A stretch of 38,998 nt of DNA from a phage. Both the position numbers and the translations under genes were made by a program. Below the pieces are notes generated by a model. The model made no database searches. It worked only from the letters and a program-made list of their open reading frames with translations, and had not been told where the DNA came from. Shown here piece after piece: positions 6,944-38,653 of the stretch (the first letter of the stretch is position 1; every line of letters starts with the position of its first letter). The stretch lies in NCBI GenBank assembly GCA_023343535.1, contig GCA_023343535.1_3944.1; one strand, written 5' to 3'.

Positions 6944-7366
6944 ATGCAGAAAATGTTTGTTCACCCAGACATAGCTGACTTTGTTAGAGCTTTGCAGAAG
7001 TTGGAAGAACTTGACATTGCTGCTCAACGGGAATATGCTCACCATCACAGGAGAATGGTTGATATACAACATGAAATAGAGTTATCTGAAAACTATGAAG
7101 ATGACTTAAAATGCTCTGTGTTTGAGCATATGAAAGATGTTGCTACAGCGAGACGTAAAGCTAAAGACACAGTTGCTTTACTAGATTCTCTTAAAAAGAG
7201 GTTGCAAAGTGGTACAGACCTGTGTAATCTAGCATCACTGATTAACGATGTTGAAACTTCTTGGGATAGGCACTATTATCCACGTTCTGAAAAGACACTT
7301 GACTTTTCTTCATCAGAAAACTTAAAATGTTCTAGAAAGAAACTTAACCAACTGAGAGAGAAATAA
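6944..7366 (+). CDS. hypothetical protein
   Basis: First gene of the rightward block; AGAGG Shine-Dalgarno; no recognisable motif. Confidence 0.5.
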   Translation: MQKMFVHPDIADFVRALQKLEELDIAAQREYAHHHRRMVDIQHEIELSENYEDDLKCSVFEHMKDVATARRKAKDTVALLDSLKKRLQSGTDLCNLASLINDVETSWDRHYYPRSEKTLDFSSSENLKCSRKKLNQLREK

Positions 7367-7367
7367 T

Positions 7368-8168
7368 ATGAATATCGATGTAGAAAAGATGCTTGAAGAA
7401 AAAGGTATTGACGAAGCATTTTTAATCAATGCCGTAGAAAGTATGGCTATGATTCTTCGTGGGAACAACTACACAGAACAGTTTATGCCTTCAAGCTATA
7501 ACTTGCCTGAAGACAAGTCTGATAACGGTGCTTTTGCAGAACAGGTTAACATGATGTTGACAGACACTACACTTGCTCTGGCATCTATTGCGGTTGGTGT
7601 TGATGCACTTGCTGAGTTCATCTTTTATGAAATGCAAAAGAATGACTATATCAGGATGTCAGACGAAGATAAGGAACTGTTGCTGACTAAGGACACTGAT
7701 TTCATTATTGATACGCTTATCTCATCAACAAGTGCTGTTATGGCTGCTCTTGAGAAGCGTATGGAAGAGAAACTTTCACGATATGAAAAACTTGATTGGG
7801 GCGTAGAAGAACTAAACCCACGAATCAAGGAGATTATCCAGCAAACTAAAGAGTCTTTGGAAGAAGCTGTTGAAAATGACTCTGTAGCTGATATAGAACC
7901 ACTTCAGGTGAAAGTTGCACTGATGATTCCAGCTATCTCTACGATGATGAATATCGTTGCACTAATCCAACTTTCACAGATGATGGGTATGAGTATTGAG
8001 TTCATTGAGGAGATGACTGGCGGTGTCAGTATGCAAGCAATCAATGATGTTTTGGTGAACATTGGTGCTTCAATCATTGAAGAGAAACTACGCATTAACT
8101 TCGGTGATGATTTTGTTAAGCAACTCTCAGCTATGGCTGAAAAAGAGTCTGCTGAGCAACTGCACTAA
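7368..8168 (+). CDS. hypothetical protein
   Basis: 266-aa ORF followed by intrinsic terminator 8187-8210. Confidence 0.5.
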   Translation: MNIDVEKMLEEKGIDEAFLINAVESMAMILRGNNYTEQFMPSSYNLPEDKSDNGAFAEQVNMMLTDTTLALASIAVGVDALAEFIFYEMQKNDYIRMSDEDKELLLTKDTDFIIDTLISSTSAVMAALEKRMEEKLSRYEKLDWGVEELNPRIKEIIQQTKESLEEAVENDSVADIEPLQVKVALMIPAISTMMNIVALIQLSQMMGMSIEFIEEMTGGVSMQAINDVLVNIGASIIEEKLRINFGDDFVKQLSAMAEKESAEQLH

Positions 8169-8186
8169 ATCTTTATAAATCTTACA

Positions 8187-8210
8187 AGCCTCCTTAGTTG
8201 GGGGCTTTTT
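8187..8210 (+). terminator. intrinsic terminator
   Basis: AGCCTCC / GGGGGCT stem (one G-U pair), 6-nt loop, TTTTT. Confidence 0.5.
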
Positions 8211-8229
8211 AGTAATTAAGGGAGATAAA

Positions 8230-8973
8230 ATGAGTAATATTATCGCATTTACTGGAAAGGCACGTTCTGGAAAAGACACCTCATGCTCTATTGTGAAGAA
8301 CATCTTAGAGGATGAGTACGGCTACAATGTTGCAGTGATGGCCTATGCAGACAACCTTAAGCTATCTGCATCAAGGATATTTGACCTAACTTGGAATGAC
8401 CTGTATGGTGAAACTAAAGAGACTCCACAGGTTTTTGACTTATCATATCCTGAACTAATGGTCAAAGTTACTGAAGCTATGGAGTTCACCTTTGAAGGTG
8501 AACGTTACCATATGGATTTTAAGCTTATGTCAGAGTTAACCGGACGATTAATCATGGAGCTTAAGAAGGTTGCTAAACCGACTCTATTAACACGTCTGGG
8601 ATTTAGCAAAAAGTATAGATTCTCATCAAGGCAAATTCAACAGATTTGGGGCACTGAAGTTATCCGTAAAGTTATGGGTGACAAGTTCTGGTCTAAAGAC
8701 CTCGAAAAACGAATGGTAAATTTCTTTGATGTTTGCTCACTTAGAAATCAAGAAGGTGTTGTTTTAATCAGTGATTTAAGATTTGACTCTGAAGCTGAGT
8801 GGCTGAGTAGATTTGCACACCAAACTATTGAAGTAAAAAGAGACAATGTGGACAAAGTTTCATCACATGTTTCAGAAAATGGCATTTCTACAAAATATGA
8901 GCGTGACATTATTCATAATAATGGTACTCTTGAAGACCTTGAGAGCAAACTAAGAGCTATCCTGAAGATTTAA
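8230..8973 (+). CDS. deoxynucleoside monophosphate kinase-like P-loop protein
   Basis: N-terminal IIAFTGKARSGKDTS resembles the phage dNMP kinase P-loop (xxSGxKRSGKDT); AGGGAG Shine-Dalgarno. Confidence 0.6.
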   Translation: MSNIIAFTGKARSGKDTSCSIVKNILEDEYGYNVAVMAYADNLKLSASRIFDLTWNDLYGETKETPQVFDLSYPELMVKVTEAMEFTFEGERYHMDFKLMSELTGRLIMELKKVAKPTLLTRLGFSKKYRFSSRQIQQIWGTEVIRKVMGDKFWSKDLEKRMVNFFDVCSLRNQEGVVLISDLRFDSEAEWLSRFAHQTIEVKRDNVDKVSSHVSENGISTKYERDIIHNNGTLEDLESKLRAILKI

Positions 8974-8981
8974 AAGAGAGA

Positions 8982-9182
8982 ATGAAGATGAGAGTAAAAG
9001 ACAATTTTAAAGTTATTGACCACCGTTTAGTGGAACTCTCATCTCTTTCCAATGAGGTAATGATTGAACGTCTTAAGAGAGTTGAATCACGAAGGAAAGA
9101 GATTGCAGATGAAATTCATGAACTGGACAAGATTGAAAATGGATTGAAGGCAGAACTACAACGAAGAGGTGCTAATGTCTAA
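8982..9182 (+). CDS. small coiled-coil protein
   Basis: 66-aa charged ORF overlapping the primase-helicase start by 8 nt. Confidence 0.4.
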   Translation: MKMRVKDNFKVIDHRLVELSSLSNEVMIERLKRVESRRKEIADEIHELDKIENGLKAELQRRGANV

Positions 9183-11160
9183 AGGTCGTAAATTGAAAGA
9201 GGCTGGTCAGTTTATTGGCCATTGTGCATGTCCACGTTGTGGTTCATCAGATGCTGGTTCAATCTATCATCATGACGATGACTCTTATTCGATGACTTGC
9301 TTTAGTTGTAACAAAGGTTTCCCAGAGTGGGATTTTGATAAAGGACAAATCGTGAGCACTTATTCTACTGGTTCAGACAATAAAAACCGTACTTTCCGTG
9401 GAATGGATTTAGACGATGTAAAAGAAAACCTAGAAGCAATGGACTTGAAAGACAGGAAGATTCCTGCAAAAGTCCTTGAACGCTTAGGTATAAAGGTTGA
9501 CATTGACAGTGATGGTGAAATTGATGCGCACTTCTACCCAACTTACAAACGTAATGAAGATGGTAAGCTAGAACATGTTGGCTACCGTGTTCGTCACCGT
9601 TACCCAGAAGACCATCCAAAAGAACACCTACGAGGTAAGCTAAAAGACTTCTCAGGTGGTGTTGGAGACATTAAAGGTGAACTGGCAATGTTCGGTTCAT
9701 GGATTGCTCCAGAAGGTGGTAACCGTCTATTCATCTGGGAAGGTGAGATGGAATGTGCGACAGCAATCTATATGACTTCTCTTGCGATTAAGGACAAGTC
9801 TCGTCGTAAGAATTACTGTCACGTATCTGTTCCATCGGGTGCAAACATTAAGTCTATCAAAGACAACTATCAGTACATCACATCATTTGATGAGATTTAC
9901 TTGTGCTTTGATAATGATGAAGCAGGTGCTAAAGCTACCAAAGAGGCTGCTGGTATCCTTCCGATTGAGAAGGTTCGTTTATTCCAGTATCCAGAGGGTG
10001 TAAAAGACCTTAACGAATGGTGGACAAAGTTCTATAAAGAGAAAGATACAGTTCTGGAAGGATTTAAGCAGCGTATCTACAATGCACCTCGTTACTGTCC
10101 TGCTGGTATCAAGAACTTCGCAGATGGTTTTGAGGCAATGAAGAATCGTGGTCAGATTCCATTGATTCCTTTCCCAGAATCTTTCGGAGATTTGAACAGA
10201 CTGACTTATGGTGGTTATGGTCTAGGTGAGATTACAACTCTGGCAGCACCATCTTCAGTGGGTAAATCAGCATACACTCGTGAAATGATTTACACAGCTT
10301 GGAAAGATACAGATTACAATATTGGTGTAATTCCTGTAGAGGATACCTATGAAGAGTTGATGGAGATGCTCTGTGCAATCCACCTGAGCAAGCAGATTTC
10401 TGAGATTCCTTATGACGAACGCGATTGGGATGAATTGAAGGAAGCACACGCAGAACTGTCTAAAGGTCGTCGTATCCACATCGTAGACCATCAAGGGGCA
10501 ATTGACCAAGATAACTTGCTGGAGTTTGTTGACTACCTTGTTAACAGCTTAGACTGTAAGATTATTATTCTTGACCCTATTACGTTGGCTCTGTCACGTT
10601 CAGATACGGATGAAGAGGAAGTTTTGTCTGAGCTATTGCGTCGTTGCAAACGCTACCAGTATGCACAAGTGAACGTCTGTCACGTTCGTAAGAGTGCAGG
10701 TGGTCAGAAGGCTAACTCTGAAGGTGGGGATATCTCTGAAGAGGATATTAAAGGCTCTGGTGCGTATTTCCAGATTTCTATGAACAACATTCTGTTAATG
10801 CGTAACAAGGTTGACCCAGACCCTGTTAAGAAAAACTTGACAAAAATCAAGTTAACTAAATGTCGTCGTCACGGTAAGTCAACGGGTATTGCTGGTCATA
10901 CTTGGTACAATCCAGATACAGGACGTCTCATTAAAGCATCTGGTTGTGGAGTTGACATTGATGGTGCAGCAGAAAATATTCGCCAACAGTTTGGCATTGG
11001 TGAAGCTGAAGACCATTACGATGACTCTTTGCCACATTATGAGGATGAAGTGTTTGACCGTGAGACTGGTGAAGTCTATACTGAAGAGCAGCGTCAAAGC
11101 TCAACGATTCCACCTGTATTAAGTGAGGATGCAGATGACTGCCCATTCGAAACTGAGTGA
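9175..11160 (+). CDS. bifunctional DNA primase-helicase (T7 gp4-like)
   Basis: Cys4 zinc finger CACPRCGSSD...CFSCNKG; TOPRIM IWEGEMECA and FDNDEAG; DnaB-type Walker A AAPSSVGKSAYT. ORF-track start 9169 is GTG; ATG at 9175 has AAGAGG 5 nt upstream. Confidence 0.9.
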   Translation: MSKGRKLKEAGQFIGHCACPRCGSSDAGSIYHHDDDSYSMTCFSCNKGFPEWDFDKGQIVSTYSTGSDNKNRTFRGMDLDDVKENLEAMDLKDRKIPAKVLERLGIKVDIDSDGEIDAHFYPTYKRNEDGKLEHVGYRVRHRYPEDHPKEHLRGKLKDFSGGVGDIKGELAMFGSWIAPEGGNRLFIWEGEMECATAIYMTSLAIKDKSRRKNYCHVSVPSGANIKSIKDNYQYITSFDEIYLCFDNDEAGAKATKEAAGILPIEKVRLFQYPEGVKDLNEWWTKFYKEKDTVLEGFKQRIYNAPRYCPAGIKNFADGFEAMKNRGQIPLIPFPESFGDLNRLTYGGYGLGEITTLAAPSSVGKSAYTREMIYTAWKDTDYNIGVIPVEDTYEELMEMLCAIHLSKQISEIPYDERDWDELKEAHAELSKGRRIHIVDHQGAIDQDNLLEFVDYLVNSLDCKIIILDPITLALSRSDTDEEEVLSELLRRCKRYQYAQVNVCHVRKSAGGQKANSEGGDISEEDIKGSGAYFQISMNNILLMRNKVDPDPVKKNLTKIKLTKCRRHGKSTGIAGHTWYNPDTGRLIKASGCGVDIDGAAENIRQQFGIGEAEDHYDDSLPHYEDEVFDRETGEVYTEEQRQSSTIPPVLSEDADDCPFETE

Positions 11161-12554: not shown

Positions 12555-13595
12555 ATGGAGAAGTACACATTAACAAAACTTCCCGATTCAGTTACACATG
12601 TTTTTATTGACTCTGACAGTATTGCCTATAAAGGTGCTTGTGTAGTTGAGAAAGCAAAATATAAATATGTCAATAAACTCACAGCAGAAGAATCTGAACC
12701 ATTTGATAATGCGAAAGATGCTGCAAGATGGTTAGCAGACCAGAGAATCCTTGTGGAAGAACTTGGCCTGACATTTGATGAAGATGAATGGGAAAGACAG
12801 ACTTGGAAAGAAGCTAAGAGTGAAAAAGAAGCTATCATGGCTACTCAACAGGTTCTTCAGGAATGGCTTAAGGTTGTTGGTAAAGAGAGAACTTGGGTAG
12901 GTTATTTAACAGAGAAAGGTGTGCATAAACATAAAGACATTAAAGGTCTTGAGCACCAATATCAAGGTAACCGTAAAGATGCTGTCACACCAACACACTT
13001 AGTCGCTTGTCGTGAATATCTTTTATCCAGACCAGAGTTCAAGCTCTTAAAGGGTGGCTTCGAAGCCGATTCAATCGTAATTGCTAAAGCTGAAAAGATG
13101 GGTAAGAAAGCTGCTCTTATGAGTATTGACAAAGACCTTCGACAAGCTGAAGGGACGTATTGTATTGATATGACTTATGAAAAGTCACCACTAATTTTTA
13201 TCGCTGACAATAATGTTGGTGATATCTGGGATTGCCCTATCAAATCAAAACCAAAAGCTGCAAAAACAGTTGGTGTAGGTTTTAAATTCTTGTGTTATCA
13301 GGCTGTTGCTGGGGATAATGCAGACAACTACTTTGGTCTTAAAGGTGCTGGTAAAGTAGCTGTGATGAACGCTTTAGAGGGTAAAGAGACCTACAAAGAG
13401 TGTCTTGATGCTATCTATGAACTCTATGCTAAAAAAGAGTCTTACACCTATGTATCATGGGATGGACAGACTGTTACAAAGACACCGTTAGAGTTAATGG
13501 AACAGCATTTCTGGGTGGCATATCAAGAGAGAAATCCAAAAGATAATTTCTCTTTTAAGAAATATAATTGGGAGCCGTGTATGAATGAAGATTAA
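12555..13595 (+). CDS. 5'-3' exonuclease / flap endonuclease (T7 gp6-like)
   Basis: VFIDSDSIAY, SIDKDL and AGDNADNYFGLKGAGK resemble the T7 gene 6 exonuclease blocks (VMDGDW, SCDKDF, GDxxDxYxGIxGxG). Confidence 0.6.
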   Translation: MEKYTLTKLPDSVTHVFIDSDSIAYKGACVVEKAKYKYVNKLTAEESEPFDNAKDAARWLADQRILVEELGLTFDEDEWERQTWKEAKSEKEAIMATQQVLQEWLKVVGKERTWVGYLTEKGVHKHKDIKGLEHQYQGNRKDAVTPTHLVACREYLLSRPEFKLLKGGFEADSIVIAKAEKMGKKAALMSIDKDLRQAEGTYCIDMTYEKSPLIFIADNNVGDIWDCPIKSKPKAAKTVGVGFKFLCYQAVAGDNADNYFGLKGAGKVAVMNALEGKETYKECLDAIYELYAKKESYTYVSWDGQTVTKTPLELMEQHFWVAYQERNPKDNFSFKKYNWEPCMNED

Positions 13596-14082
13596 AGGAT
13601 TTGGCAATTGCCCCACCTATGGTCATTGGGTATCTTTATGTGGGGAAGTTGACCCCACTAAACATTTTGGCTTTGTCTATTTAGTACACTGTAAGAAGAC
13701 CGGACAATATTATATCGGAAAGAAACAACTTAACAGTGTGACAAAAAGAAAAGTTGCTGGGAAGACTCGGAAGAAGGTAGTCACTAAGGAGAGTGATTGG
13801 ATGACTTACGAAACATCTTCTGAGTATATTAAAAAAGATATTGAGAGTTTTGGAAAAGAGTCTTTTGACTTTTACATTATCCAAACCTACTACACAAAAG
13901 GTGGTCTAGTTTATGGTGAAGCAAACCTTCAACATAAGTTCGATGTAATGACAAAAAGGATTGACTCGAAGCTCAGACTCTTCTACAATGCCAATATTGC
14001 AGCAATTAAGTTTATTACTAAAGAAACTTATGAAGATGCTGAAAAAAGAATCCATAAGGTAATGAAAGCAAATTGTGCTTGA
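13585..14082 (+). CDS. GIY-YIG nuclease-like protein (possible homing endonuclease)
   Basis: GFVYLVHCKKTGQYYIGKK matches the GIY-(x10)-YIG spacing; overlaps the exonuclease stop. Confidence 0.4.
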   Translation: MKIKGFGNCPTYGHWVSLCGEVDPTKHFGFVYLVHCKKTGQYYIGKKQLNSVTKRKVAGKTRKKVVTKESDWMTYETSSEYIKKDIESFGKESFDFYIIQTYYTKGGLVYGEANLQHKFDVMTKRIDSKLRLFYNANIAAIKFITKETYEDAEKRIHKVMKANCA

Positions 14083-26182: not shown

Positions 26183-26563
26183 ATGATTGAACTGTTAAAA
26201 GTCCTGTATAATGAGTTTGGCTATGATAAAACATTTACTTGCTCACAGATACGTAGTATCCATGACAAGGAATTTCCAGATGTATCCAAGACAAACAAGT
26301 CAACTCGGTTCAATCGTCTTCGCCAGAGGGGTTACATTAAAATAGTTGGATACAAGAAGAACTCTTTCGAGTATGTAATGCAGATTAACAGAGAAGTATC
26401 AAGTAAAATACTTGAAGAGCCAACAGCCGAAGAACAAAAGATACAAGATGGTGAAGTTCGCTTCTTTGTGGAGAAGGAAAGTTTTGGGTCAATAGATGAA
26501 GCTATCGAATATTGTAAAAAGAACATTATCCAGATAAAGCGTAGAAAGGTTATTTGGGAATAA
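26183..26563 (+). CDS. tandem paralog family member B2
   Basis: ATG at 26183, 4 nt after A2 stop; homologous to B1 with conserved C-terminal EYCKKNIIQIKRRKVIWE. Confidence 0.55.
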   Translation: MIELLKVLYNEFGYDKTFTCSQIRSIHDKEFPDVSKTNKSTRFNRLRQRGYIKIVGYKKNSFEYVMQINREVSSKILEEPTAEEQKIQDGEVRFFVEKESFGSIDEAIEYCKKNIIQIKRRKVIWE

Positions 26564-26577
26564 AGAGAGAGAAAACT

Positions 26578-27459
26578 ATGAAAACATCTATTCGTGTTAT
26601 AATTCATTCACCGACAAAAGGGTCTCATGAAGAAGAGTTTAACATCATCCAGTTCCCTTCTGGTGAGATTGGTGGACACTTTTCACAAGAGCTTGTTGAT
26701 TTTACTGCTTATGCAGCATCATCCATCAACAACGTGATTATGATTGTAAAGGGTTATGACAAAGACACATTATTTGCTGTGGCACTTGCTAAAGAAGCAA
26801 TTGACGATTTAGTACCCCATAAGTTTGCTATGAAGACTGCTATCTTTTACTATTTGCCAAATGCACGTTACGACCGTCACATGTTTAAAGGTGATGCAGC
26901 AGCTTTGAAAGTGTTTGCACAACAGGTTAATGCAATGGGTTTTGATGCAGTCTGTGCAGTTGACCCTCACAGCTATGTACCAGATAACCTGTTTAACTGC
27001 TTCCAGAGTATTCCTCAAAAGGAAATTGCAGTTCACTATGCAAATGACCCTCTAATTGATTACTTAGTAGCCCCAGATGCAGGTGCTGCTAAGAAGATTG
27101 CAGAGACTGCTAAAGAGGTGGATAAACCATACATCACAATGTCTAAAGTACGTAACCTCAAGACTGGTGAAATTACTGGTATGCGAATCCTTGATGATGT
27201 TGATTTGACAGATAAAACCGTCATGATTCTGGATGATATTTGTGATGGAGGACAAACCTTCATAGAAGCAGCTAAACATCTTCGTGAAGCAGGTGCAAAA
27301 CGTGTGGAACTCTATGTAACGCATGGTATCTTCTCTAAAGATGTTGAAAACCTTCTTGACAATGGTATCGACCATATTTACACTACAAACTCTTTAGGCG
27401 AAGCTAAAGACCGTGGCTTAACACATTATAGTCAAGTTACTGTAGCAAACCTTGATTGA
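26578..27459 (+). CDS. ribose-phosphate pyrophosphokinase (Prs)-like protein; candidate ADPR-pyrophosphate synthetase (Adps) of an NARP1-type module
   Basis: C-terminal block VMILDDICDGGQTFIEAAKHLREAGAKRVELYVTHGIFS closely parallels the canonical Prs PRPP-binding region (VLVDDMIDTGGT ... GAKRV ... THPIFS). ORF-track start 26554 is TTG; ATG at 26578 follows GAGAGAG. Confidence 0.75.
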   Translation: MKTSIRVIIHSPTKGSHEEEFNIIQFPSGEIGGHFSQELVDFTAYAASSINNVIMIVKGYDKDTLFAVALAKEAIDDLVPHKFAMKTAIFYYLPNARYDRHMFKGDAAALKVFAQQVNAMGFDAVCAVDPHSYVPDNLFNCFQSIPQKEIAVHYANDPLIDYLVAPDAGAAKKIAETAKEVDKPYITMSKVRNLKTGEITGMRILDDVDLTDKTVMILDDICDGGQTFIEAAKHLREAGAKRVELYVTHGIFSKDVENLLDNGIDHIYTTNSLGEAKDRGLTHYSQVTVANLD

Positions 27460-27504: not shown

Positions 27505-29286
27505 ATGACTAAATCACTTTATGCAGTACCAGCAGGTTTAAACGCAGATGCTTACAAATCTGGTCATGTTTACCAGTATCCTAGTGCAACAGAGTACTTG
27601 ATGTTCAACCTGACACCACGTAGTGACAAATGGTTTAACAGCCCCTTAGCAATTGATGGTGTAGTGGCTTTTGGTATTCAACGTTTCGTTAAAGATTACT
27701 TAATAGACCACTGGAACGCCACTTTCTTTGAACGTGATAAAAAAGAAGCAATTGACGAAATCTTAGAAGTCATGAATGGTGTTCTGGGCAAAGATGCTAT
27801 CGGTCGAGAACATTGGGAAGCACTTCACGACTTAGGTTATCTACCAGTTGAAGTATACGCTGTAGAAGAAGGCACAGTTGTTCCAATGCGTGTTCCAATG
27901 ATTGTCTTCCAGAACACTGTTTCAGGTTTCCATTGGGTAGCAGGTTATCTAGAAGACGCTTTCTCTGCTGAGATTTGGAAGGCTTGCACCATTGCAACTA
28001 TTGCATTGCACTACAAACGTATCTGTAAGAAGTGGGCTGACCTCACTTGCGACAACGACTTGCATTTACCTTATCAGTGCCATGACTTTGCTATGCGTGG
28101 TATGTCCGGCTTTACTGATGACGCATTCAACGCTGTAGGACACTTAACCAGCTTTAAAGGGACTGATAGCTTCCCTGCTGTATACACGGCTAAACGTATC
28201 TATGGGCAGACCTATCCAATCTCTGATATTGGAAGCTCTGTACCAGCCACTGAACACTCTGTAATGTGTGCAAACATTGCTTGGGAAGGTGGTAACGAGT
28301 TGGTTGAAGAAGAAAGACGATTTAAAGGTGAGTTACAAACCTTCCGTCATTTCTTAACAGAAACTTACCCAACTGGTATTGCAAGTATTGTTTCAGACAC
28401 TTATAACTTCTGGAGAACTGTGTCAGAAATCTTACCAGCACTTCGTAAAGAAATTATGGAACGTGACGGTAAACTGGTAATTCGTCCTGACTCTGGAGAC
28501 CCTGTACATATTGTCACAGGTTATAAAGCAATCCACTTAGAGTGTGCTAAAAAGGCTTATTACGAGCACCTAAGCAAGCTGGAAGCCAGTGACACAATGC
28601 TGAATGCTGTTCTGAACATGAAGCTTGAAAACATCAGCTATGGTATTGCTGGATGGCTACTGTCAGAAGGCTACGAAATGGTTGTTGACCGAGAAGACTT
28701 TGAAGTTGCTGATACAGTGATGTTGAAAAATGCTTATATGGTTGGCTCTGCAAACGTTGTAACACGTCCTGTAGCTGAGATTGATGGAGCTATTAAGACA
28801 CTGTACAACATCTTTGGGGGAACTATTAACTCTAAAGGATTTAAGGTACTGGACGAGCATATCGGCCTTATCTATGGTGACTCTATCACACTGGAACGTG
28901 CAAACGAAATCCTGAAGCGTCTGTATGAAATGGGTTTTGCAAGCTCTAACGTGGTGTTTGGCGTAGGTTCTTACACTTACCAGTACATGACTCGTGACAC
29001 CTTTGCATTTGCTGTCAAAGCAACTCTTGCAAGCATTGGTGGTAAAGAGATTATGCTTGCAAAAGACCCTAAAACAGATAGTGGTGTTAAGAAATCTGCC
29101 TTTGGTGGTGTAGCACCTATGTGGGATGGTGATAAGCTGAAAGCTGTAGATGGCTATGGATTCCAGAGTTTTGCAGATGTACTTGACCACCCAGCTTGTG
29201 CTTTACGTTTAGTCTTTAGTGACTCTGAGCAGTTCGGTTACACAACTCTTGGTAATATTCGAAATAATATTGACAAGCAGCTTTAA
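27505..29286 (+). CDS. nicotinamide phosphoribosyltransferase (NAMPT/NadV)-family protein; candidate nicotinamide-ADPR transferase (Namat) of an NARP1-type module
   Basis: NAMPT-family blocks DAYKSGHVYQYP, HDFAMRGMSG ... SFKGTDS ... SSVPATEHS, SDTYNFW, IRPDSGDP; 593 aa. Confidence 0.8.
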   Translation: MTKSLYAVPAGLNADAYKSGHVYQYPSATEYLMFNLTPRSDKWFNSPLAIDGVVAFGIQRFVKDYLIDHWNATFFERDKKEAIDEILEVMNGVLGKDAIGREHWEALHDLGYLPVEVYAVEEGTVVPMRVPMIVFQNTVSGFHWVAGYLEDAFSAEIWKACTIATIALHYKRICKKWADLTCDNDLHLPYQCHDFAMRGMSGFTDDAFNAVGHLTSFKGTDSFPAVYTAKRIYGQTYPISDIGSSVPATEHSVMCANIAWEGGNELVEEERRFKGELQTFRHFLTETYPTGIASIVSDTYNFWRTVSEILPALRKEIMERDGKLVIRPDSGDPVHIVTGYKAIHLECAKKAYYEHLSKLEASDTMLNAVLNMKLENISYGIAGWLLSEGYEMVVDREDFEVADTVMLKNAYMVGSANVVTRPVAEIDGAIKTLYNIFGGTINSKGFKVLDEHIGLIYGDSITLERANEILKRLYEMGFASSNVVFGVGSYTYQYMTRDTFAFAVKATLASIGGKEIMLAKDPKTDSGVKKSAFGGVAPMWDGDKLKAVDGYGFQSFADVLDHPACALRLVFSDSEQFGYTTLGNIRNNIDKQL

Positions 29287-35214: not shown

Positions 35215-35227
35215 GGTTAAGATACAG

Positions 35228-35249
35228 GCTCCTTCGGGAGCCTTTTTTC
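35228..35249 (+). terminator. intrinsic terminator (UUCG tetraloop)
   Basis: GGCTCC-TTCG-GGAGCC then TTTTTT. Confidence 0.6.
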
Positions 35250-36373: not shown

Positions 36374-36575
36374 AAAGACACGGAAAATTATCCGGTCAGC
36401 AGTATCCATTGGAAGAAATGAAGTGATTCCTTTTACAGCAAATGATGTGATAATCTACAGGAAAAAATTAGCATTCAGTTATTGCTTACGTGGCTTTATC
36501 TCCCAGCCATTGGAAGACTTTAAAAGTCGTTGTGGTAAAGGTATCATCATCCAAGAGGCAATTATCAATGGCTGA
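36348..36575 (+). CDS. hypothetical protein
   Basis: 75-aa ORF with GAGAAGG Shine-Dalgarno. Confidence 0.4.
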   Translation: MKVILARDKKTRKIIRSAVSIGRNEVIPFTANDVIIYRKKLAFSYCLRGFISQPLEDFKSRCGKGIIIQEAIING

Positions 36576-36768
36576 CTTCTGCAAAGACTGTTCTATCGAA
36601 ATGTTCGGACGTGATACAGGTGACTTAAAAGGTCTCATCACTGAAGATGACTTTAAAGCTGGTTATGCAATGCCAGTAATCTGTGAAGGTTGTGGGTGCA
36701 TCTGGGTAGACCATGAAGGGCAACGTGTAAAACCTTCTGAAGACAAAGAATCTTGGGAGAGATGTTAA
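36568..36768 (+). CDS. small zinc-binding protein
   Basis: ATG at 36568 (ORF-track start 36490 overlaps the previous gene); CKDC ... CEGCGC cysteine pairs. Confidence 0.4.
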   Translation: MADFCKDCSIEMFGRDTGDLKGLITEDDFKAGYAMPVICEGCGCIWVDHEGQRVKPSEDKESWERC

Positions 36769-37554
36769 ATGGGTATTGTAAAAATCATCAATGGTGATAT
36801 CTTTGCTGCATTTGATAAAGGTAAGTTTGACATCATTGGTCACGGTTGTAATTGTATGAATTTAATGGGTGCAGGTATCGCTGACAAGATTTCTAAACTT
36901 TACCCAAAAGCATATGAGACCGATACAGAAGTTTACCTATATGCAGGTGGCATAGGTCACAAACCCTGTGAAAATTTACTGGGTAATTTCTCTGTAGTAC
37001 GTTTAAAACAAGGTCGTATAGCTAACCTTTACACTCAGCTTAAGACTGGTAAAGATGCCCGATACAGTGCTTTAGAGTCATCTTTGAAACAGCTTAACAG
37101 ATACTGTGAAGTCAATCAGTTGAAGAAAGTCGGGTTACCTATGATTGGTACAGGCATCGGTGGGCTAGACGCTCAAGCCGTCACAGTTATCATCAATCAG
37201 GTTATGAAGAGTGTAGATGTTTATCTATATGTCTATGAAGGAGAGATGTACCACAAGTTACTCTCAGGTTGGAAGAACTACTGTGAACCAGAATACTTTG
37301 CAGGTGTAGTTGTGTTCACAGATAACGCAGTTACCCTCTTCAGACGAAGAAAAGGTAAGATACATCAAAGTAACCCTCCGGTTGAAAAGATGTCTCTAAG
37401 TAACGCTCTAGTTACCCACCTGTCGAAGAGCAATCACAGGATTGCAGTAACATTTGGCAGTGATGCAGATGCTTACATCTATGCAAGAACTGATGAGGAT
37501 ATCGAGACAGTTTTCTCTTCACCAGAAGTTACCTTCTTAGACGCAAAGAACTAA
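36769..37554 (+). CDS. macro-domain protein (ADP-ribose binding/processing) with C-terminal extension of unknown function
   Basis: GDIFAAFDKGKFDIIGHGCNCMNLMGAGIADKI parallels the macro-domain GDIT ... AIVNAANxxLxxGGGVxxAI block; VGLPMIGTGIGGLD parallels the second block (hAFPxIsTGIyGyp). Confidence 0.65.
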   Translation: MGIVKIINGDIFAAFDKGKFDIIGHGCNCMNLMGAGIADKISKLYPKAYETDTEVYLYAGGIGHKPCENLLGNFSVVRLKQGRIANLYTQLKTGKDARYSALESSLKQLNRYCEVNQLKKVGLPMIGTGIGGLDAQAVTVIINQVMKSVDVYLYVYEGEMYHKLLSGWKNYCEPEYFAGVVVFTDNAVTLFRRRKGKIHQSNPPVEKMSLSNALVTHLSKSNHRIAVTFGSDADAYIYARTDEDIETVFSSPEVTFLDAKN

Positions 37555-37584
37555 GAAACTCCGTAGAATATTCACAATAGTCTA

Positions 37585-37628
37585 AGCCTTCCTTATCTGG
37601 TAAATTTTTCAGGTAAGGAGGGCTTTTT
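37585..37628 (+). terminator. putative intrinsic terminator (long-loop hairpin + U-run)
   Basis: AGCCTTCCTTA / TAAGGAGGGCT arms, then TTTTT. Confidence 0.4.
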
Positions 37629-37822
37629 CATTTCAGATTTGTGCAGGTAGAGTTCTGTAGAGAAATCTGTAGAGAGAATTTTAAACTCCAAAGAGAAAAT
37701 TCATTTTCAAACTGTGCAGGTAATCTCCAAAGAGCTTTTTCATTTTCAAAACGTGCAGACCCCGCTCAGGTCGGGCAAGAAAAATCATTTTAGAATTGTG
37801 CAGGTAGGTGGGTGTAGGTGGG
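37627..37822 (+). repeat. array of four imperfect direct repeats (about 23 bp, consensus TTCATTTTCARAnYTGTGCAGGTA) with nested short repeats; iteron-like
   Basis: Copies at 37627-37650, 37700-37724, 37739-37760 and 37786-37808; also CTCCAAAGAG x2 (37686-37695, 37725-37734), TCTGTAGAG x2 (37654-37674) and GTAGGTGGG x2 (37804-37822). Confidence 0.7.
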
Positions 37823-37983
37823 GCTGTCGCCATTTCTCACAAGGCTACCACATCTAAAAAGAAAAGTCAACAGAAAAATTTGTAGCGGATTGAAAAATAA
37901 TTCTTGATTGTAGTTCTGTTTTGTGGTAGTCACGCGCACCCGTTTCATTACAATCTTTGCAAAAAATATTTTTAAAATTCCTA

Positions 37984-38012
37984 TTGACTCTTTGAGTATG
38001 GTTATCTAATAT
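37984..38012 (+). promoter_or_regulatory. sigma70-like promoter
   Basis: TTGACT 37984-37989, 17-bp spacer, TAATAT 38007-38012; about 50 nt upstream of the ATG at 38063. Confidence 0.5.
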
Positions 38013-38062
38013 TTGCATCAGACGGGCAATCAAGCCCACTTCCTAAACTGGAGAATCTAAAA

Positions 38063-38269
38063 ATGCTGTACAGTCGCGAATTGATGGTTACAACTAACAT
38101 TAACACAAAGGCAAAACGTTTTTACATGCAAATCTGTGGCGTGTGGTCCAGAATATCAGAAGCTGACTATTGCAACTATGTAGAAACGGCTATTAATTCT
38201 AATTGCTATCTGACAAGAAATACTAAGAAGTTTACAAGACAGACAGCAATTTACTACTACGATAAATAA
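38063..38269 (+). CDS. hypothetical protein
   Basis: 68-aa ORF; leader CCTAAACTGGAGA shared with the next gene. Confidence 0.45.
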   Translation: MLYSRELMVTTNINTKAKRFYMQICGVWSRISEADYCNYVETAINSNCYLTRNTKKFTRQTAIYYYDK

Positions 38270-38356
38270 AGTACTTTACAAGGGGCTTATAGTTCGATAA
38301 AGTAAGCCCCAGATAAAGAGCTTTATCAAATTAACCCCCTAAACTGGAGATTCAAA

Positions 38357-38653
38357 ATGAAATTATCGAATAAAGTTCGTGAAAATCTAAGCAAGTTACT
38401 CAACAAAATCGATTTTATCGAGACATCAAGGAATAATCATGATGTTATGGAATGGTTGCACGGCAAAATAAAAGGCCGTCGCGTAGTGATTTGCTTATGG
38501 AATAGTTGCAGGGAGTATAAAAAACCTGTATTGCAAGTAAATATTTATGATGATACTTTTAAAAGTCCAGTAAAGTCTAAAAGCGACTTATTAGAATCCT
38601 ATGAGATAACTGTAAATGGCAAAGTATCACGCAAAGAGGAAACACCATGTTAA
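38357..38653 (+). CDS. hypothetical protein
   Basis: 98-aa ORF with the same CCTAAACTGGAGA leader. Confidence 0.45.
   Translation: MKLSNKVRENLSKLLNKIDFIETSRNNHDVMEWLHGKIKGRRVVICLWNSCREYKKPVLQVNIYDDTFKSPVKSKSDLLESYEITVNGKVSRKEETPC

Follow-up and report, generated by a model that had tools for sequence, protein, structure and literature searches.

A Felixounavirus macro-domain protein of the Tk.4/Adpp family with a fused orphan domain and a possible role in trans to NARP1

The 38,998-nucleotide (nt) phage contig GCA_023343535.1_3944.1 (GenBank assembly GCA_023343535.1), called the window here over its whole length, encodes a two-domain protein of 261 amino acids (aa) at 36769..37554 (+, stop codon included), an open reading frame (ORF) that starts with ATG and whose product matches PHROG 335 over its full length (E=3.7e-112). 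We find that the N-terminal part of this protein is a macro domain of PHROG 335, the phage Tk.4/Adpp family, which within the TARG1-like class falls in the Poa1p-like branch. The window comes from a Felixounavirus, with DNA in this region 93–97% identical to that of >200 Felixounavirus genomes, and its relatives are FelixO1-like myoviruses infecting Escherichia, Salmonella, Shigella and Citrobacter. The family is a known one whose function was clarified only in 2025–2026, and the protein is not a new kind of system. Its distinctive features are a fused C-terminal orphan domain, a separate clade, a position in trans to the NARP1 cassette of the same genome, and an allelic replacement. Among the functions weighed below we tentatively rank first that of Adpp, an ADP-ribose (ADPR)-1''-phosphate phosphatase that would here feed NARP1.

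A macro domain with a TARG1-like fold

A prediction made earlier from the nucleotide sequence alone (the original prediction) had recognised a macro domain with both signature blocks, and this was borne out by motif location, profile matches and fold. The domain covers residues 1–157 (36769..37239, +), as placed by Pfam PF01661, by an AlphaFold2 model searched with Foldseek, and by identity to Tk.4 and Adpp. It opens with GDIFAAF at residues 9–15 (nt 36793–36813), followed by the loop-1 block DIIGHGCNCMNLMGAGIADKI at residues 21–41 (36829..36891, +), which holds His25 and Asn28 and is assigned from its invariance in 91 family members. The loop-2 block VGLPMIGTGIGGLD, residues 121–134 (37129..37170, +), contains the diphosphate-binding P-x-I-G-x-G, of which P124, G127 and G129 are invariant. 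Between the two loops lies an NLYTQ block with Gln90 (37024..37038, +), located by a HMMER alignment to TARG1 and a BLAST alignment to PhiKZ AdfM. The Pfam Macro model matches residues 25–141 with E=6.9e-8 and a score of 32.9 bits, above the gathering threshold of 22, and the macro-domain match is far beyond chance. No further Pfam family matched the 261-aa protein at E≤1, including ThsA-macro and other specialised models.

The AlphaFold2 model (predicted local distance difference test score, pLDDT, 75) shows a macro fold at residues ~1–157. Comparison of such a model with known macro domains had been proposed as a check, and when it was carried out TARG1, DarG, Poa1p and viral macrodomains were all matched at a Foldseek probability of 1.0, with template modelling (TM) scores of 0.7–0.83 when normalised to the target. 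The solved structures nearest to the model are TARG1 (E=1.3e-9, target-normalised TM 0.81), yeast Poa1p, and DarG macrodomains from T. aquaticus and M. tuberculosis; for TARG1 and Poa1p the E values span 1e-9 to 5e-8. Sequence searches of the PDB agree with this placement in the TARG1-like class.

The active site keeps the family residues and lacks the DarG lysine

To describe the active site we aligned a non-redundant set of 91 family members taken from 160 viral loci. Residues Gly9, His25, Asn28, Cys29, Met33, Gly36, Ala38, Gly72, Asn86, Tyr88, Gln90, Pro124, Ile126, Gly127 and Gly129 are invariant or nearly so, and the window protein carries every one of them. In pairwise terms His25 corresponds to H24 of Adpp, and Asn28 to N27 of Adpp and N23 of PhiKZ AdfM. 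With the motifs G9-D10, N28, G34-x-G36 and P124-x-I-G127-x-G129 all kept, the window macro domain is predicted to bind ADP-ribose.

A different picture emerges at residue 90. Gln90 aligns with the catalytic lysine of TARG1 (K84), DarG (K80) and PhiKZ AdfM (K78), and Gln is found at this position in 99% of the family, which reads TQ where the TARG1-like signature is TK-G-G; DarG is inactivated by mutation of Lys80. The TARG1 dyad Lys84/Asp125 aligns with Gln90/Gly131 in the window protein and is absent. Thus, on the question of whether careful alignment would reveal lost residues, which the original prediction had raised against itself, His25, Asn28 and the binding loops are retained and the lysine of DarG and TARG1 is replaced. 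Two further positions near loop 2 depart from the family: the family Gly133 is Leu, and the Trp at 135 (92% conserved) is lost in the Felix clade and is Ala135 here.

The DarG models tell the same story. PhiKZ AdfM scores 133 bits with the PADLOC DarG model, compared with 47 for the window protein, 45 for Adpp and 36 for T4 Tk.4, and the NCBIfam DarG equivalog NF048014 gives the window protein 46.8 bits against a cut-off of 250. These profiles cover only positions ~1–150. Given the Lys-to-Gln replacement and the low scores, we conclude that the protein is no DarG and that a lysine-dependent mechanism is impossible; it is not of the DarG type that the original prediction had mentioned as background. 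We accordingly rejected DarG membership, for which the C-terminal part is also unmatched, and the Lys/Asp mechanism of TARG1.

Characterised relatives of the window protein

The closest characterised homologue is T4 Tk.4 (34% identity over 160 aa, E=3e-25 to 5e-24, 82 bits), which also matches PHROG 335 (E=1.3e-65), has the NLYTQ and HGCNC motifs, and likewise comes from an E. coli myovirus, where its gene is an early one that stands alone. A transposon screen on DarTG2 gave tk.4 as its only significant hit, a clean tk.4 knockout sensitises T4 to DarTG2, and the authors, who named the gene adfM, infer that its product enzymatically removes ADP-ribose from DNA (DNA-ADPr) (HIDEN-SEQ preprint, 10.1101/2025.11.20.689424). 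T4 Tk.4 differs from the window protein in its length of 155 aa, in having no C-terminal domain, in belonging to a separate well-supported clade, and in coming from a phage that has no NARP1.

Adpp, the product of KNV71_gp137 of Vibrio phage Gary, is the ADPR-1''-phosphate phosphatase of NARP1-AP (Osterman et al., bioRxiv 10.64898/2026.01.28.702374). These authors report that aRES cleaves NAD+ to nicotinamide and ADPR-1P and so defeats plain NARP1, that purified Gary Adpp converts ADPR-1''-phosphate to ADPR in vitro, and that the Adps-Adpp-Namat operon (NARP1-AP) overcomes aRES where NARP1 alone fails. Mutations in Adpp abolish the anti-aRES activity (the mutants made were H24A and N27A), and Poa1p is the closest Adpp homologue with a known cellular role (10.64898/2026.01.28.702374). 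The Adpp orthologue of Vibrio phage Morian, gp169, lies between Adps and Namat, is nearly identical to Gary Adpp and matches PHROG 335 (E=3.1e-50); it is 27% identical to the window protein (E=3e-15, 56 bits), and T4 Tk.4 and Adpp are 34% identical to each other (E=4e-22). Adpp and the window protein have in common the PHROG 335 family, a Poa1p-like macro domain, the tested His and Asn, Gln at the TK site, and a genome that encodes Adps and Namat. Adpp differs in being a single-domain protein of ~158 aa encoded between Adps and Namat, compared with 261 aa and an extra domain in the window protein.

A third characterised protein, the DarG2-like PhiKZ gp104 (AdfM), strips DarT2 ADP-ribose from DNA in vitro, and its N23A mutant has reduced activity (Morgan et al., Cell Rep 2026, PMC13309987). 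It has in common with DarG and the window protein a macro fold of the TARG1-like class and the conserved Asn, but it is only 23% identical to the window protein. DarG has in addition a C-terminal domain that binds DarT, and this domain does not detectably resemble the C-terminal domain studied here. Poa1p (PDB 6LFQ–6LFU) is like the window protein in H-x-C-N-C and in the M-G-x-G-I-A loop, but both Poa1p and human TARG1/OARD1 (PDB 4J5Q–S) are cellular single-domain proteins at ~22–23% identity. The typical PHROG 335 member, in turn, is a stand-alone protein of ~150 aa with a Trp after loop 2, neither of which holds for the window protein.

We note that the name AdfM covers two non-orthologous phage macro proteins, namely PhiKZ gp104, which is DarG-like with a catalytic Lys and in vitro proof, and T4 Tk.4, which is Poa1p-like with a Gln and has genetics only. 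T4 Tk.4 and Adpp are nearer to each other (34%) than either is to PhiKZ AdfM.

NARP1 is encoded in the same genome

The Prs/NAMPT pair that the original prediction had noticed in this genome is present, and it is Adps/Namat, that is NARP1, already characterised in the sister phage Bas63. The first enzyme, the Prs-like ADPR pyrophosphokinase Adps, is encoded at 26554..27459 (+; PHROG 619 and the annotation of a close relative), and the second, the NAMPT-like nicotinamide ADPR-transferase Namat, at 27505..29286 (+; PHROG 448, E=1.6e-201). The two genes are adjacent with a gap of 46 nt, and the window Namat is 99% identical to that of the Felix-like phage finno. NARP1, discovered in genes 79–80 of Felixounavirus Bas63, rebuilds NAD+ from ADPR and nicotinamide. 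Since NARP1 consumes ADPR, the earlier idea that the macro protein feeds ADPR to this cassette becomes concrete; the part of the argument that relied on both being in one genome is weak evidence for a shared role. Phage records at ≥60% identity number 244 for the macro protein and 261 for Namat, and as both genes are near-universal core genes of the lineage, their co-occurrence in Felix-like phages is uninformative.

Two observations on the organisation of NARP1 in other phages stand beside these data. In the annotated relative LinBro an HNH endonuclease gene lies between Adps and Namat (L001:27797-28288), which makes the NARP1 operon a target of homing-endonuclease insertion. In Pseudomonas phage JG004 (Pakpunavirus, GU988610.2) the macro gene is next to Namat (7022-7492 and 7881-9368); its product is 30% identical to the window protein, is included in the published table of NARP1-associated macros and is operon-linked, unlike the situation in Felix-like phages.

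Phylogeny and gene context of the family

Classification of the 160 viral loci by context, in a sample partly ranked by similarity to Adpp, gave 38 NARP1-adjacent loci (within 1.5 kb), 3 with NARP1 near (1.5–4.5 kb), 17 of T4-like type (beside vs or tk), 29 of Felix type and 73 in other contexts. A neighbour-joining tree with 300 bootstraps supports a Felix clade (0.95), a T4-like clade (0.96) and a Vibrio Adpp clade (0.93). The NARP1-adjacent macros are spread over several clades, and their number (38 of 160) together with this scatter shows that the family was recruited to NARP1 repeatedly. Active-site residues are identical between the Adpp-like and T4-like groups. The positions that do discriminate the groups are peripheral, and at these the Felix proteins are mixed, having the NARP1-adjacent state at ~8–9 and the T4-like state at 5, which is weak evidence. 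Sequence, tree and context do not separate an Adpp-like from an AdfM-like role.

A C-terminal orphan domain and an allelic replacement

The original prediction had also described a C-terminal extension in which no motif could be recognised, and we likewise obtained no match in Pfam or NCBIfam for the ~104-aa C-terminal part. When residues ~158–261 (37240..37551, +) were modelled alone, a fold of six beta strands and short helices was predicted with a pLDDT of 76 and a predicted TM score (pTM) of 0.70. When this domain was run as a profile against 1.84 billion representative proteins, only same-lineage or truncated gene calls and two marginal matches to repeat proteins were returned, and a Foldseek search of BFVD returned its own orthologue only, with no fold neighbour. 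The C-terminal domain is without a sequence or fold relative outside the Felix-like lineage.

This domain evolves ~2 times faster than the macro part. In Citrobacter-type alleles the C-terminal identity is 46–54% and the macro identity 75–79%, and in the most divergent context examined here, the allele of viral contigs L030 and L031, these values are 26% and 52%. A basic hairpin, RRRKGK, is conserved yet lost in the most divergent allele, and with a near-neutral isoelectric point (pI) of 6.5 for the domain there is no clear pointer to DNA binding. Because most family members have no such domain it appears dispensable for the chemistry, and it probably adds targeting or partner binding. As a speculation, the loss of Trp135 in the Felix clade could be related to docking of the extra domain.

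The L030/L031 allele is also of interest for its boundaries. The flanking genes of these contigs are 91–100% identical to those of the window. Their DNA identity of ~93% ends at window position 36911, which is macro codon ~48, is then patchy at 72–83% to ~38260, and returns to 92–94% from 38263. The swapped stretch (L030:6001-6780 and L031:6001-6780, against window 36912-38260) comprises the macro gene from codon ~48 and the downstream intergenic region, and the replacing allele, of P0009 type, encodes 259 aa with both domains kept. The locus is a recombination mosaic with a breakpoint inside the macro gene. Such mosaics are often seen at counter-defence loci.

An elaboration that we consider unlikely is that the C-terminal domain forms a second, non-enzymatic counter-defence layer, which would either bind a host defence protein, such as DarT2 or aRES, and block it directly, or dock the hydrolase at the source of its substrate. 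Candidate docking sites might be single-stranded DNA (ssDNA) at the replication fork, or Adps/Namat for channelling. If this were true, the protein would be a functional analogue of the two-layer DarG built from an unrelated domain, and the allele swap would reflect an ongoing arms race at that binding interface.

Proposed function and alternatives

We infer activity, substrate and role from the features above and from the characterised homologues. The macro domain would be a catalytically competent hydrolase of the Tk.4/Adpp family, made early or in mid-infection as a counter-defence enzyme. The ADP-ribose moiety would be held by Gly9-Asp10, the GHGCNC...MGAGIA loop and the P-x-I-G-x-G loop, and the group on C1'' of the distal ribose would be removed with water positioned by His25, Asn28 and Gln90, a chemistry that would not be of the lysine-dependent type of DarG and TARG1. 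ADPR-1''-phosphate, the product of RES-type (aRES) NAD+ phosphorolysis, would be dephosphorylated to ADPR, which would then be the substrate from which the phage's Adps and Namat rebuild NAD+. In this scheme the macro protein, supplied in trans, would extend the NARP1 pathway by a third enzyme. aRES has been cloned from E. coli, Klebsiella and Enterobacter and is present in 3.3% of Pseudomonadota genomes. An Adpp-like role is ranked first because NARP1 is present, because aRES defeats NARP1 that has no phosphatase, and because aRES occurs in enterobacteria; we nevertheless put it forward as the leading candidate rather than as the probable answer. This active site may in addition undo the ADP-ribosylation of ssDNA thymidine by DarT2, which is what the T4 homologue appears to do. 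An Adpp-like role does not exclude an AdfM-like one, and a single active site may accommodate the two, since in each reaction a leaving group is displaced from C1''.

A number of observations weigh against a phosphatase that serves NARP1. The macro gene lies ~7.5 kb and ~13 genes downstream of Namat, on the same strand but in a different transcription unit, with a terminator-like site at 35226-35243 between the two. The published table of NARP1-associated macros lists no Felix-like phage, nor does the published aRES panel include one. The window protein is somewhat nearer to T4 Tk.4 than to Adpp in pairwise scores, and the Felix clade groups with neither the T4-like nor the Vibrio Adpp clade, being roughly equidistant from them (the window protein has a mean distance of 1.35 from the T4-like group and of 1.47 from the NARP1-adjacent group). 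Among Escherichia phage records 992 have a family macro and 192 a Namat relative; macro-bearing E. coli phages are thus mostly without Namat, which implies that the family has NARP1-independent functions. With ~41% of myoviruses encoding a macro domain, co-occurrence with NARP1 could also be due to chance. Finally, a phosphatase role leaves the extra C-terminal domain and the allelic replacement unexplained, and the allele swap is more readily understood for a protein that touches variable factors of the host than for a phosphatase acting purely on a metabolite.

Several of these points favour a possible but less likely role, that of an AdfM-like anti-DarT2 factor which would strip ADP-ribose from ssDNA thymidines (TNTC motifs) and so restore replication, and whose C-terminal domain might, by analogy with the two-layer DarG, add DNA or toxin binding. 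T4 Tk.4, whose knockout sensitises T4 to DarTG2, is the closest characterised homologue, E. coli is a host in common with T4, and the gene stands alone outside NARP1, as it does in T4. DarG macrodomains are among the nearest solved folds, and of the models in defence libraries those for DarG in PADLOC and NCBIfam match best; however, the score of 47 bits is no better than the 45 of the phosphatase Adpp and is well short of PhiKZ AdfM, and the catalytic Lys of DarG, PhiKZ AdfM and TARG1 is Gln90. T4 Tk.4 has Gln as well, and its removal of DNA-ADPr is only deduced by its authors. The allele swap and the fast-evolving C-terminal domain are more in keeping with an arms race between proteins than with a metabolite phosphatase, but this domain is unlike that of DarG, is near-neutral and has lost its basic hairpin in the divergent allele. 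The window protein also falls outside the T4-like clade, and the literature searched yielded no test of a Felix-like phage on DarTG2.

The remaining alternatives carry less weight. We think it quite unlikely that the protein hydrolyses, or soaks up as a sponge, ADP-ribose adducts or signals of other kinds, such as gcADPR, His-ADPR (Thoeris), RNA or protein ADP-ribosylated by host ADP-ribosyltransferase defences, or O-acetyl-ADPR. Some records label the orthologue as an O-acetyl-ADP-ribose deacetylase and macro domains can bind His-ADPR, as in ThsA, but no ThsA-macro or other specialised Pfam model is matched, the two supported PHROG 335 activities are different ones, and no PHROG 335 homologue has been shown to act in this way. 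Of the three roles suggested in the original prediction, two, reversal of ADP-ribosylation and feeding of ADPR, have experimental support in PHROG 335 homologues (Tk.4 and Adpp). A clean-up function in RNA repair, in which ADPR-1''-phosphate derived from a 2'-phosphotransferase would be removed in concert with the polynucleotide kinase encoded nearby, in the way that Poa1p acts in tRNA splicing, appears very improbable. It would agree with the historical phosphatase label taken from the A1pp motif of T4 Tk.4, with Poa1p as the nearest Adpp homologue of known cellular role, with a pnk gene ~2 kb upstream of the macro gene, and with the RNA ligase genes that flank the Morian NARP1-AP. Against this, the annotated context showed neither a 2'-phosphotransferase of KptA/Tpt1 type nor a 2H phosphoesterase, and the DarTG2 phenotype of T4 would be left unexplained. 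To our knowledge, phage Pnk/ligase repair yields no 2'-phosphate junction. Equally hard to credit is a non-catalytic ADP-ribose reader, in which the macro domain would only bind and the C-terminal domain would carry the function: the TARG1 dyad is gone (Gln90, Gly131) and the family Trp at 135 is lost in the Felix clade, but Adpp is active despite the same Gln, and His25 and Asn28, which Adpp needs, are invariant.

Felix-like phages are used in phage therapy and biocontrol, and they are the model in which NARP1 was discovered. If ADPR is supplied in trans, NARP1-AP would be commoner than the operon-based 15% of NARP1 phages, and Felixounaviruses would be predicted to resist aRES. If DarT2 damage is reversed instead, Gln-type 'AdfM' would extend beyond T4, and the puzzle of how a macro domain that has no lysine cleaves thymidine-linked ADP-ribose would become sharper. 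In either case the window protein would be a convenient test case for one active site facing two defences and for the contribution of the orphan domain.

Genomic setting of the macro gene

A Shine-Dalgarno sequence, GGGAG, precedes the macro gene at 36755-36759, and the TAA stop of the upstream gene (36766-36768) directly touches the macro ATG. This upstream gene (36568..36768, +) encodes a Cys-rich, zinc-ribbon-like protein of 66 aa (CxxC...CxxC) of PHROG 2210 (E=2.8e-41). It is immediately 5' of the macro gene in every one of the 29 Felix-type loci and beside no other macro gene, and its product may be a translationally coupled partner. On the other side, 30 nt past the macro stop, lies an intrinsic-terminator-like hairpin with a 17-bp stem and a T run (37584..37625, +), and a 'terminator' is annotated at the same place in phages AYO145A and KhF2. 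The genes neighbouring the macro gene are small ORFs of unknown PHROGs, with no adjacent darT and no vs or tk gene nearby. The window has no tRNA genes.

Just past the terminator, a non-coding stretch (37619-37803) holds four direct repeats of ~40 nt that end in ...TTTTCATTT(T)CA.A..TGTGCAG. This downstream repeat region gave no meaningful match to Rfam; the repeats may be regulatory sites or promoters. A conserved leader element (ATCAA...CCTAAACTGGAGA.TC.AAA) is found directly 5' of two successive small ORFs, at 38029-38061 and 38325-38357 (also 38263-38363), and farther downstream the related loci L023, L025, L030 and L031 carry many copies of a ~95-bp version. The element looks like a module for promoter function or translation initiation that is repeated in an array of small genes.

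The macro gene is 96.8% identical at the nt level to the copy of phage vB_EcoM-VpaE1, which is annotated 'putative phosphatase'. Across relatives the orthologue is labelled 'putative phosphatase', 'hypothetical protein' or 'O-acetyl-ADP-ribose deacetylase', and the phosphatase label traces to the annotation of T4 Tk.4, 'contains A1pp phosphatase motif'. In LinBro the macro gene closes a long + strand block that contains nucleotide metabolism genes, the Prs-like and NAMPT-like genes, rIIA/rIIB, pnk, a spanin gene and several small ORFs. A label of another kind concerns window 13585-14082 (+), whose LinBro homologue is called 'NAD synthetase'. Pfam identifies this gene as a SegE-type GIY-YIG homing endonuclease (E=4.9e-28), so the label is likely an annotation error and the gene is not part of phage NAD+ metabolism.

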